A stretch of 32,000 bases of DNA from Candidatus Thorarchaeota archaeon (GCA_008080745.1 SHMX01000001.1:90001-122000), one strand, 5' to 3'. Shown: positions 24,381-25,965, counted from the stretch's first letter. A program made the numbers and translations. The notes: a model not told the origin generated them from the letters alone.

Positions 24381-24788
24381 TTATTCCTCAGTCTCATCTG
24401 ATTCTTCATCATCTATTTCTTCATCCTCACCCTCTGACTCCATATCTTTATCGATGTCTTCCTCTTCATCAAGATATTCTTCTTTATCTTCGACATCTAA
24501 ACCGGATGATGCTATCTTATTGATAATAGGATAGACTATAATCAATCCAATGAAGGCCAGAGCAATTATTGCCATCATTGCACCACTGGCACCAAACCAG
24601 GCCACAGGATTGACTAAAAGATCGGAAAAGGGCGACTCAAGTAATACAATTTGAAACCAAATGGGAATGGCAAAGACAAGTGGTAGACATATTAGAACCA
24701 GAATGCCAATTGAGGCAATTATCTCAGCCATATGTAGCAGAATACGTTTCACCGTGCTATCAACTGCTTTCTTCGCAATAGAGGACAT
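24381..24788 (-). CDS. Small two-TM membrane protein with an acidic tail
   Basis: Start moved to the ATG at 24788 (MSSIAKK, preceded by GGAG and a TTTTAAA box about 35 nt upstream). Two hydrophobic segments, then a D/E-rich tail. Confidence 0.65.
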   Translation of the reverse strand: MSSIAKKAVDSTVKRILLHMAEIIASIGILVLICLPLVFAIPIWFQIVLLESPFSDLLVNPVAWFGASGAMMAIIALAFIGLIIVYPIINKIASSGLDVEDKEEYLDEEEDIDKDMESEGEDEEIDDEESDETEE

Positions 24789-24822
24789 TTTTCTTCTCCA
24801 ACCGAGTGCAACATAGAACTCC

Positions 24823-24834
24823 TTTAAAACTTGC
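24823..24834 (-). promoter_or_regulatory. GCAAGTTTTAAA BRE/TATA-like element upstream of the 24788 gene
   Basis: The same 12-mer occurs on the plus strand at 25241-25252. TTTTAAA lies at archaeal promoter distance from the ATG. Confidence 0.5.
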
Positions 24835-24851
24835 TGGATAAATGAAGGTCT

Positions 24852-24948
24852 GGGGGCCAAAAATAGGAGGAATCGAATCCGCAGCGCTTGTGGAATTGGA
24901 CGTCAAATCTGAGAGAGAGGGTGTGTGTAGCGGATGATTGTGGCCCCC
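24852..24948 (-). ncRNA. Candidate structured small RNA 1 (97 nt, strand uncertain)
   Basis: Terminal 8-bp stem GGGGGCCA/TGGCCCCC and inner helix AATC-ATCCGC/GCGGAT-(TC)-GATT. Unpaired CCCTCTCTCTC and CCTCC on the minus strand. TTATAT lies 27-32 nt upstream on minus. Confidence 0.45.
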
Positions 24949-25053
24949 GTTATGATATATTATAATATAATATGATATAAGTGTATGTAATGTCAACACT
25001 GTCGTCATAATGTTTTGATAATTGATTGATGAAAAGAAGAGAGAGGAGAAGAG

Positions 25054-25136
25054 GAGCGACCCGAGGTTTTGAACGCTGGAGGAGGAGAGAGAATTGCTAC
25101 GGAATGATCATAACAAGATTAACCGTCGGGTCGTTC
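25054..25136 (-). ncRNA. Candidate structured small RNA 2 (about 83 nt)
   Basis: Terminal stem CGACCCGA/TCGGGTCG, a bulged C, then GGTT/AACC. The loop contains TTCTCTCTCCTCCTCC. TTATATA box at 25166-25160 and a downstream pyrimidine tract ending TTCTTTTC. Confidence 0.5.
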
Positions 25137-25240
25137 TGTATTATATTAGGATTAAAGATATATAATCAAATCTTCGATAGACTAAAACCCGCCAAATGAT
25201 GCGAAATTCGCAATAGTGAATAAATATGATAGAGATTATC

Positions 25241-25263
25241 GCAAGTTTTAAATGTAAACTTGC
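25241..25263 (+). promoter_or_regulatory. TATA box embedded in an 8-7-8 inverted repeat (putative operator)
   Basis: GCAAGTTT-taaatgt-AAACTTGC. TTTAAA at 25247-25252 lies about 30 nt upstream of candidate RNA 3. Confidence 0.5.
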
Positions 25264-25282
25264 AGTATACTCATTTGAATGC

Positions 25283-25472
25283 GTGTCGAGGAGCGCCAAA
25301 ACATCACAACGTGACTCTTGTCACAATTAGTGATGCTCCCTCCTGAAAAATCCTGATTGCACAAAAGGTGCACACATCCTCTCCTCCAATCGTACTAAAT
25401 AAAGTACGATTAACCTCCTCAAGCAACCAAGCGTACTATTTTTCTTGGCGCACCTCGCACCTTCACTTTTTT
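25283..25472 (+). ncRNA. Candidate structured small RNA 3 (about 180 nt plus T-tract)
   Basis: The 5' arm GTG-t-CGAGG-a-GCGCCAA pairs with the 3' arm TTGGCGC-a-CCTCG-CAC. Three internal hairpins (25302-25335, 25358-25372, 25388-25411). Linkers carry CTCCCTCCT, CATCCTCTCCTCC and AACCTCCTC. Ends CTTCACTTTTTT. Confidence 0.55.
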
Positions 25473-25542
25473 GTCACAATTCTAAAAATATTTGGGAGGA
25501 AAGAAGGGTCTCCCCCCGGTACAACTTAGTTTTTCTACACCT

Positions 25543-25965
25543 CTAACAGACATCTACTGGCTGAGGAAAAGGTGACGTTTCTATAAGGACTGACTCACAT
25601 CCAAAAGAGAATACTTCGACCATGAAAGGTGAATCTGATTCTGCAACTTTTGTCCAATTGTTCCGATCCCGCCTATAAAAACAATAATTGGTACAATTAT
25701 ATCGAATTTCAACTATTGATCTATCAGGAATAGTTTCCAGATCAGAAACAGAAAAGGTGATTCCCTCCGATTGATTTTCGCTATTCGGACGAGAAAGAAA
25801 GATTCGAAAAATATCACCATTATTTGGAAGTAGTAGCGCAACATGAGGACGACTATAAGAATCCCAATGATTAGGGATTGGCAGATTTCTGCACGCATAT
25901 GCGCCCTGAGCAGATTGGAATACCAAAAGAGTACCCTCATCGATTATCATGGTTTTATTGTACAC
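25543..25965 (-). CDS. Hypothetical protein (orphan-like)
   Basis: 140-aa ORF with ATG start and an upstream GGAG, occupying otherwise empty sequence. No recognisable motif. Confidence 0.5.
   Translation of the reverse strand: MYNKTMIIDEGTLLVFQSAQGAYACRNLPIPNHWDSYSRPHVALLLPNNGDIFRIFLSRPNSENQSEGITFSVSDLETIPDRSIVEIRYNCTNYCFYRRDRNNWTKVAESDSPFMVEVFSFGCESVLIETSPFPQPVDVC

Follow-up and report, generated by a model that had tools for sequence, protein, structure and literature searches.

A candidate regulated small RNA with exposed anti-Shine-Dalgarno motifs and two clustered siblings in one family of Thorarchaeota

The stretch of DNA considered here, hereafter the window, comprises 32,000 nucleotides (nt) of Candidatus Thorarchaeota archaeon (GCA_008080745.1 SHMX01000001.1:90001-122000), and our subject within it is an element at positions 25283-25472 of the plus strand, which we call RNA 3 and which an earlier note, made from the sequence alone, had described as a multi-branched RNA. 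The host assembly is a metagenome-assembled genome (MAG) of a member of the Thorarchaeota (Asgard archaea) from marine sediment, amounting to 3.16 Mb in 19 contigs and 98% complete, and RNA 3 is present in it as a single copy. Among listed sequencing runs, this DNA was traced to two DNA runs of a single marine-sediment study, probably those behind the assembly, and to no RNA run. The element lies in a setting whose gene order is the same in each of the 15 loci compared: a Mrp/ParA-like ATPase, a membrane protein of 159 amino acids (aa) with an acidic tail, the intergenic RNAs, a convergent 135-aa protein, and a HAD hydrolase. Two more conserved stem-closed elements, RNA 1 and RNA 2, separate the membrane-protein gene from RNA 3, and this three-RNA cluster is retained in most loci. 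We consider it very probable that RNA 3 is a real, conserved, lineage-specific noncoding RNA gene. Judged from sequence comparison, it is a stand-alone regulated small RNA (sRNA) of about 100-195 nt, depending on the genus, and one of three clustered siblings, and its family, previously undescribed, is confined to one family of Thorarchaeota.

The predicted transcript of the window is about 195 nt long and extends over 25278-25472 of the plus strand, an assignment that draws on a covariance model match (25277-25473), on folding energy, and on covariation together with G-U pairs. The region 25283-25472 has a minimum free energy (MFE) of -55.8 kcal/mol in a multi-branch fold, compared with -29.2 +/- 3.3 kcal/mol for dinucleotide shuffles (n = 200, z = -8.1), of which 0/200 were equally stable, so that the shuffled-control check proposed in the earlier note turned out in favor of its fold. 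Refolding also reproduced the architecture as described there, with a 15-bp closing stem interrupted by one bulge and one mismatch, the hairpins A, B, and C, CU-rich linkers, and a T6 run. The closing stem pairs GUGUCGAGGAGCGCCAA (25283-25299) with UUGGCGCACCUCGCAC (25445-25460), its irregularities being a single bulged U and a single A/A mismatch. It encloses hairpin A (CAUCAC/GUGAUG plus GUGAC/GUCAC, 25302-25335), hairpin B (UGCAC/GUGCA, 25358-25372), and hairpin C (9 bp, 25388-25411), and directly 5' of its 3' strand lies an internal U5 tract (25439-25443). A run of at least four U recurs at this place in 29 of 33 homologues, with lengths of U4-7, and it might serve either as a site for an Sm-like protein or as a point of pausing or termination. 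An additional A/U helix of the MFE structure (GAAAAAU/AUUUUUC) has no comparative support in the homologues.

It is the comparison among homologues that carries the case for an RNA. In an alignment of 33 homologues, 91.8% of the closing-stem cells are paired versus 83.1% in shuffles, double changes occur in 14 of the 20 RNA 3 pairs versus 6.5 +/- 1.6 in shuffles (0/500 of which reach 14), and pairing falls to 29-57% when the partners are slid out of register. In the main helix, 10 of 11 pairs show compensatory changes, the 3' strand covarying with 25283-25299, and an independent MAFFT/RNAalifold alignment recovered the identical closing stem. In hairpin B, 89% of cells are paired, with double changes in two pairs and several U-G pairs. 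The strand of RNA 3 is not given by energy alone, because the minus strand of 25283-25472 is also stable (z = -6.5); U-G and G-U pairs are, however, frequent at several positions and would read as A-C mismatches on the other strand, which therefore places RNA 3 on the plus strand. These data also bear on the reading that the region is no RNA gene at all and owes its conservation to a small encoded protein or to an element acting as DNA, a reading for which one could cite the short open reading frames (ORFs) that overlap it. Pairs are maintained by compensatory changes, including G-U pairs possible on one strand only; no reading frame is conserved across RNA 3, since each is broken by the 26-nt indel of hairpin C and by other indels, with lengths that are not multiples of three inside every ORF; and the element is bracketed by a TATA box and a T-run. 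We regard this reading as scarcely credible.

Not every part of the fold is equally constrained: the closing stem and the CU-rich linkers alone are universal. In many genera a hairpin persists at the position of hairpin A, with self-complementary sequences that differ among alignments and are unrelated between genera, hairpin B is partly conserved and frequently absent, and hairpin C is an insertion that occurs only in the window and in the genome of the same genus (L003), where it splits an otherwise invariant block. Minimal forms of about 100 nt, found in two genera, lack hairpins A and B and consist of the stem and a CU/CA-rich loop of about 50 nt, so that the three hairpins, which the earlier note had presented as the design of the RNA, do not hold up as a conserved feature. 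What that note had singled out as the functional part, namely the repeated single-stranded CCU/CCUCC motifs within a structured frame, is by contrast the most conserved portion, the unpaired CU-rich linkers being preserved across at least 13 genera with the nearly invariant sequence AUCCUCUCCUCCUCAAGCAACC. Motif 1 (CUCCCUCCUGAAAAAUCCUGA, 25336-25356) contains CCUCCU, the anti-Shine-Dalgarno (anti-SD) core of 16S rRNA, and has the conserved form (C)CCUCCU-GAAA-UCCUGA; as regards the conservation check suggested earlier, CCUCCU is present in 32 of 32 distinct homologues and always within unpaired regions. Motif 2a (CACAUCCUCUCCUCC, 25373-25387) is the first half of the near-invariant block, with invariant columns in alignments of 10 and 15 sequences, and motif 2b (AACCUCCUCAAGCAACCAAGCGUAC, 25412-25436) is its CA-rich half, with CUCAAGCAA in 26 of 32 homologues. 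In genera other than that of the window, which lack hairpin C, 2a and 2b are contiguous, and the block reads ACAUCCUCUCCUCCUCAAGCAACCA(A)AGCGAACC, so that the near-invariant unpaired parts of the loop can be written as CCCUCCU-GAAA-UCCUGA and ACAUCCUCUCCUCCUCAAGCAACCAAAGCGAACC. Each homologue carries 2-7 copies of UCCU and 3-8 of CCUC, and the loop is poor in G (12%, versus 35% C). In the loci of genus g4, motif 2 has no CCUCC but retains CUCAAGCAAGCAA.

RNA 3 has the marks of a transcription unit of its own. An archaeal TATA box, TTTTAAAT, lies at 25246-25253 on the plus strand, and each of the loci read has a TATA-like element equally far upstream of the closing stem, about 25-30 nt before a conserved GAAUG that precedes the stem; judged by the position of this box, transcription probably starts near 25278, some 5 nt before 25283. 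At the other end, the closing stem is followed by a 3' tail (25461-25472, plus strand) composed of CUUCAC and a T6 run (25467-25472); CCUUCA is found here in 19 of 32 homologues, and T-runs after the stem recur in most other loci. Oligo-T tracts are established terminators in archaea. Upstream of the TATA box there are two operator-like boxes, the distal one a 15-bp palindrome, ATGCGAAATTCGCAA (25199-25213), with a box at -78 +/- 1, relative to the start of the RNA, in almost every homologous locus, and the proximal one, TAGAGATTATCGCAA (25230-25244), which abuts the TATA box and is located at -47 in most loci. Their centers are separated by a fixed 31 bp, and their consensus is TTGCGA-N3-TCGCAA with a WWW center. 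Boxes of this kind are not enriched genome-wide in the host, and a position weight matrix scan of the host genome for pairs at 31-bp spacing returned only one other site, C1:347469-347546, which may represent a second member of the RNA 3 regulon. That site has three boxes, at spacings of 31 and 32 bp, and is intergenic, adjoining a gene for a 379-aa protein of unknown function; the genes that adjoin it are uninformative as to the regulon. The boxes of the archaeal regulator Ss-LrpB have the consensus TTGCAAAATTTGCAA and occur in regularly spaced arrays (PMC1802622), and those of RNA 3 are alike in being 15-bp semi-palindromes with an A/T-rich center and regular spacing (PMC1802622). The operator format thus resembles the archaeal Lrp type, a resemblance only, which possibly indicates the class of the regulator.

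The two siblings share the layout of RNA 3. RNA 2 occupies 25030-25137 on the minus strand, where a stem (25058-25064 with 25126-25132) closes a loop with the invariant sequence CUCCUCCU(U)CC, followed by AGCGUUC and similar to motif 2 of RNA 3. In a 19-sequence alignment, 7 of its 8 stem pairs show compensatory changes, and the minus orientation gives about 13 G-U/U-G cells and zero A-C/C-A cells, from which it follows that RNA 2 reads on the minus strand; its TATA box, GATTATATATC (minus strand; plus coordinates 25156-25166), stands at a fixed distance, and T-rich runs fit the same orientation. RNA 2 and RNA 3 are accordingly divergent, with the operator boxes between them. RNA 1 occupies 24835-24951, also on the minus strand, with a stem (24851-24859 with 24941-24948) around a loop that conserves CCGCUAC...CCUCUCUCUCA; it is conserved in 14 loci, its stem strands change together (GGGGACC/GGUCCCC, GGGGCUCAC/GUGAGCCCC, GGGGGCCA/UGGCCCCC), U-G wobbles appear in the minus orientation only, and a conserved TATA box lies at plus coordinates 24975-24986. 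On these patterns, the strand of RNA 2 can be taken as settled as minus and that of RNA 1 likewise, albeit less formally. No further sibling copies were found elsewhere in the host genome. The idea that RNA 2 might be a GA-rich pairing partner of RNA 3 was rejected, RNA 2 being a minus-strand RNA and itself CU-rich. A 57-codon ORF at 25026-25199 (plus strand), with an Arg-rich N-terminus and a hydrophobic helix, overlies RNA 2, is not conserved in the same-genus genome, and is most likely spurious. On the far side of the cluster, the ORF of the 159-aa membrane protein (24381-24860, minus strand) has a TTG start that falls inside RNA 1, and a conserved TATA box (TTTAAAG) with GGAG before an ATG at about 24788 suggests that the real membrane protein has about 135 residues and a very acidic C-terminal tail.

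The convergent gene on the other side of RNA 3 encodes the 135-aa protein (25546-25950, minus strand), which is found near RNA 3 in about 40 genomes and has a distant paralogue in most genomes. It has no Pfam match and weak SPRY-like hints only in the Atlas; its AlphaFold model is mostly beta, with a predicted local distance difference test (pLDDT) value of 70, and a Foldseek search of it against the PDB gave nothing with E < 0.03. As a protein partner of RNA 3 it was rejected on the grounds of mismatched distributions, since some genomes encode it but have no detectable RNA 3, and in genera g10 and g14 RNA 3 occurs without it. One could also imagine that RNA 3 is a cis-antisense regulator of this gene, in which overlap or collision with the 3' end of the mRNA would control its stability or termination: the two are arranged tail-to-tail in about 40 of 44 genomes, often with a gap of just 13-60 nt, and some loci, such as L019, have no T-run between the stop codon and the RNA 3 gene. 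Where the gap shrinks to about 13 nt, such a role is conceivable. In the window, on the other hand, a T5 run belonging to the protein gene (A5 on the plus strand, 25483-25487) comes before RNA 3 is reached; RNA 3 is without an orthologous neighbor in g10 and g14 and lies 1.2-1.7 kb from it in genomes G012 and G015; a covarying stem and invariant loops would be unneeded for such a role; and no partner of this kind exists for RNA 1 or RNA 2. An antisense function of this sort thus seems to us quite improbable.

The distribution of RNA 3 is narrow. In BLAST comparisons with relatives, the same-genus copy is 89% identical and the core is found in 8 further genomes of the same GTDB family, and a search of about 185,000 species genomes with the exact core pattern returned 12 loci, 11 of them in MAGs labelled Thorarchaeota, Promethearchaeota, or "uncultured archaeon"; the twelfth, which is without the stem, is a chance match. 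A covariance model built from eight members detects a single copy in each of 44 genomes out of the 86 that belong to the GTDB family of the host (16 of 23 high-quality genomes, 13 of 16 genera), and 125 genomes from other families in the phylum gave no match. Within the family, it found nothing in genera g3 (0/17), g11 (0/3), and g2 (0/2), and the diverged version of g4 was mostly missed by the filtered search. In five g4 loci (L063, L064, L065, L067, and L068), the position of RNA 3 is kept, its core now reads AUCC-N-CCCCUCUCAAGCAAGCAA, and neither the closing stem nor the operator boxes can be made out clearly, which would fit either a diverged functional form or decay; RNA 2 is well kept in g4 even where RNA 3 has diverged. 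No match to Rfam 15 was obtained in the whole window at gathering thresholds, a permissive scan of 24860-25560 gave chance-level scores only (E 1.4-9; 11-18 bits versus gathering thresholds of 40-94), and no tRNA or tmRNA genes were found in the window. Regarding the host assembly itself, contigs C14, C15, C17, C18, and C19 are short, have 62-65% GC versus about 41% elsewhere, and probably represent contamination of the MAG, and the 16S rRNA gene (C2:589938-592348), at the very end of contig C2, is 2411 bp long relative to a model of 1478 positions and therefore contains one or more large insertions or introns.

A single-copy RNA with a fixed syntenic position, a core that is invariant across genera, and two siblings beside it in most loci might be a housekeeping component, that is, part of some other lineage-specific ribonucleoprotein (RNP) or RNA machine, such as an RNA-processing guide or chaperone, whose CU-rich block would pair with a conserved purine-rich RNA outside the assembly or make tertiary structure. 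Arguing against this are the promoter with its conserved operator boxes and the failure to find RNA 3 in 3 of 16 genera, including the well-sampled g3. The best duplexes of RNA 3 with 16S and 23S rRNA and their flanks are, moreover, no better than those with shuffled targets, and inspection of the sequence revealed neither a k-turn nor C/D or H/ACA boxes; the stem has a 1-nt bulge and the A/A mismatch only, with no tandem G-A and no bulge-helix-bulge, and no Rfam snoRNA match rises above chance. We therefore judge a housekeeping role unlikely.

The reading that we place first starts from the translation signals of the host. The 3' end of its 16S rRNA is GGAUCACCUCCU, the last six bases of which are CCUCCU, and in the 40-nt upstream regions of 2210 ORFs, GGAGG is about 20-fold enriched at -15 to -12 of the starts (121 of 181 GGAGG occurrences), with GGUG enriched at -11 to -9, so that host genes commonly have GGAGG(UGA) Shine-Dalgarno (SD) sites and initiation in the host is SD-led. 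The invariant CCUCCU of RNA 3 is identical to the anti-SD core of this 16S rRNA, and the reverse complement of motif 2a is GGAGGAGAGGAUG, that is, an SD sequence followed by AUG. We tentatively propose, as a possibility that falls somewhat short of even odds, that RNA 3 is a regulated RNA acting in trans to mask ribosome-binding sites of the GGAGG type; no specific target was found. In such a scheme, RNA 3 would be driven by its own TATA promoter under the control of a dimeric transcription factor, possibly Lrp-like, that binds both operator boxes; the closing stem would shield the ends of the RNA and hold the seeds single-stranded; the exposed CCUCCU and CUCUCCUCCUC segments would pair in trans with the purine-rich ribosome-binding regions of mRNAs and, by competing with the anti-SD of 16S rRNA, block translation initiation; and the siblings RNA 1 and RNA 2 could add dosage or broaden the range of targets.

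This proposal is ranked first also because its design is shared with known ribosome-blocking sRNAs. The csRNAs of Streptococcus (ccnA-E) are anti-SD sRNAs with motifs that are also complementary to AUG (PMC4387999), and in S. aureus, RsaE and other Rsa RNAs block translation initiation by means of unpaired C/U-rich motifs (PMC2790875). Together with LhrC of Listeria, these RNAs have in common with RNA 3 the sibling copies, the conserved unpaired C/U-rich anti-SD motifs, the stable framing helices, and a dedicated regulator (PMC4387999, PMC2790875, PMC4132741). There is no sequence or structural homology between them: RNA 3 is archaeal and has a TATA promoter, its end-to-end stem surrounds a large loop with CCUCCU/CUCUCCUCCUC whereas the Firmicutes RNAs are built from a 5' hairpin and a terminator and carry UCCC, and it has an extra invariant CA-rich block. 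Closer in domain are sRNA154 and sRNA41 of Methanosarcina mazei, intergenic archaeal sRNAs that are nutrient-regulated and mask mRNA ribosome-binding sites with loops bearing anti-ribosome-binding-site sequences (PMC5867862). They belong to another phylum, have no sequence similarity to RNA 3, and possess experimentally supported targets; the cluster of three siblings and the operator boxes are particular to the Thorarchaeota locus. As far as the present evidence goes, the nearest functional parallel of RNA 3 is with trans-acting sRNAs of the anti-SD class, from which it is set apart by the end-to-end stem around a large unstructured loop, the CA-rich block, the archaeal promoter with paired boxes, the sibling cluster, and the range of one family.

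A number of observations weigh against a role in masking SD sites. Searched for complements to 21 nt of the core, the 98%-complete genome offered none that matches at 17 or more positions (a match in a sulfatase-like ORF, on a contig of 62% GC that is probably contamination, was dismissed as chance), a seeded genome-wide duplex scan for targets returned noise-level matches only, and complements of 10-11 nt to the core are rare and not located at gene starts (0/8 and 1/7). The bases that flank GGAGG in about 511 candidate start regions are unbiased, and therefore the generic pairing would amount to only 5-6 bp, which is possible with about 500 GGAGG sites but unspecific. The CA-rich half of the block, CAAGCAACCAAAGCGAACC, is not an anti-SD sequence, and its complement is absent from the host genome; it stays conserved in the g4 genomes in which CCUCC has been lost from motif 2, which hints that it is recognized in some other way, a protein being one example. 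A stretch of 35 invariant unpaired nucleotides is also long if it is to act as a seed, an RNA with one gene copy could compete with ribosomes for generic SD sites only if it were very highly expressed, and the expression, ends, and strand of RNA 3 are all predicted from sequence. The suggestion of the earlier note that RNA 3 could titrate a protein or several SD-containing mRNAs thus fares unevenly: the usage of GGAGG(UGA) by the host and the CCUCCU end of its 16S rRNA agree with it, whereas neither an extended target nor a CsrA-like partner came to light.

The missing extended targets, the CA-rich half without a complement, the chance-level pairing with rRNA, and the pattern in g4 therefore favor protein recognition, which we place second. 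RNA 3 would then be a protein decoy or RNP scaffold whose unpaired UCCU, CCUC, and CAAGCAA segments bind a pyrimidine-preferring single-strand protein of KH or Sm-like type, and together with its siblings it would sequester the protein or assemble it, in the manner of CsrB with CsrA or CrcZ with Hfq, using another motif and another partner. The several motif copies per homologue, the 35-nt unpaired block that is nearly invariant across genera and has no complementary nucleic acid in the genome, the persistence of the CA-rich half where g4 has lost CCUCC, the conserved U4-7 tract beside the stem, and the G-poor, unstructured character of the loop all agree with this possibility, as do three LSM-domain genes in the genome (C2:97138, C2:429726, and C2:532560), whose presence is to be expected in an archaeon. 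It would, on the other hand, turn the identity of the motif with the 16S anti-SD into a coincidence. Candidate partner proteins were sought, and none was identified: neither CsrA (PF02599) nor Ro60/TROVE (PF05731) was found in the 98%-complete genome, although the former was detected in control genomes and the latter in the controls Deinococcus and Bacteroides, and the linked 135-aa neighbor has no recognizable RNA-binding fold and a distribution that differs from that of the RNA. We rate this possibility as doubtful, not far below the masking of SD sites and above a housekeeping role.

Two known groups of protein-binding RNAs invite comparison at this point. The earlier note had likened RNA 3 to the CsrB-type sponges, and the likeness stands as far as layout is concerned, in that CsrB/RsmZ RNAs likewise present many short unpaired copies of a motif on a multi-hairpin RNA. 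Membership in that family does not follow, for CsrB/RsmZ RNAs display GGA in hairpin loops, whereas RNA 3 carries the complement CCU mostly in its linkers and exposes CCUCCU, UCCUGA, and UCCUCUCCUCC rather than GGA; there is no homology, and the genome yielded no CsrA. Y RNAs, which occur in eukaryotes and some bacteria, have a long bulged stem that pairs the two ends, a large pyrimidine-rich internal loop, a 3' U-run, and several paralogues clustered in one locus. RNA 3 resembles them in each of these respects, a likeness of layout only, and it differs from them in the lack of a Ro60/TROVE gene in the genome, of a match to the Rfam Y_RNA family, and of a conserved Ro-binding helix sequence.

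With regard to what RNA 3 and its siblings mean for the biology of the Thorarchaeota, we found no paper on Asgard/Thorarchaeota small RNAs of this kind, nor any on Asgard regulatory RNA. The Asgard archaea are the closest prokaryotic relatives of eukaryotes. The sequence pattern of RNA 3 directs attention to the initiation of translation or else to a protein that binds pyrimidines. The covariance model could become a new RNA family entry, and the paired boxes mark out a small regulon with a transcription factor of its own. As a more far-reaching conjecture, which we consider improbable but worth stating, the three CU-rich RNAs could together form a lineage-specific Asgard RNP, a Y-RNA- or 7SK-like scaffold that sequesters a pyrimidine-binding protein of KH or Sm type, or else a regulated free anti-SD pool. 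If the latter were true, the pool would bring about a global shift of translation away from SD-led mRNAs, and in either form, RNP or anti-SD mimic, the system would amount to a type of translational or RNP control undescribed in archaea. The three-RNA family thus offers a testable entry to post-transcriptional control in the Thorarchaeota.

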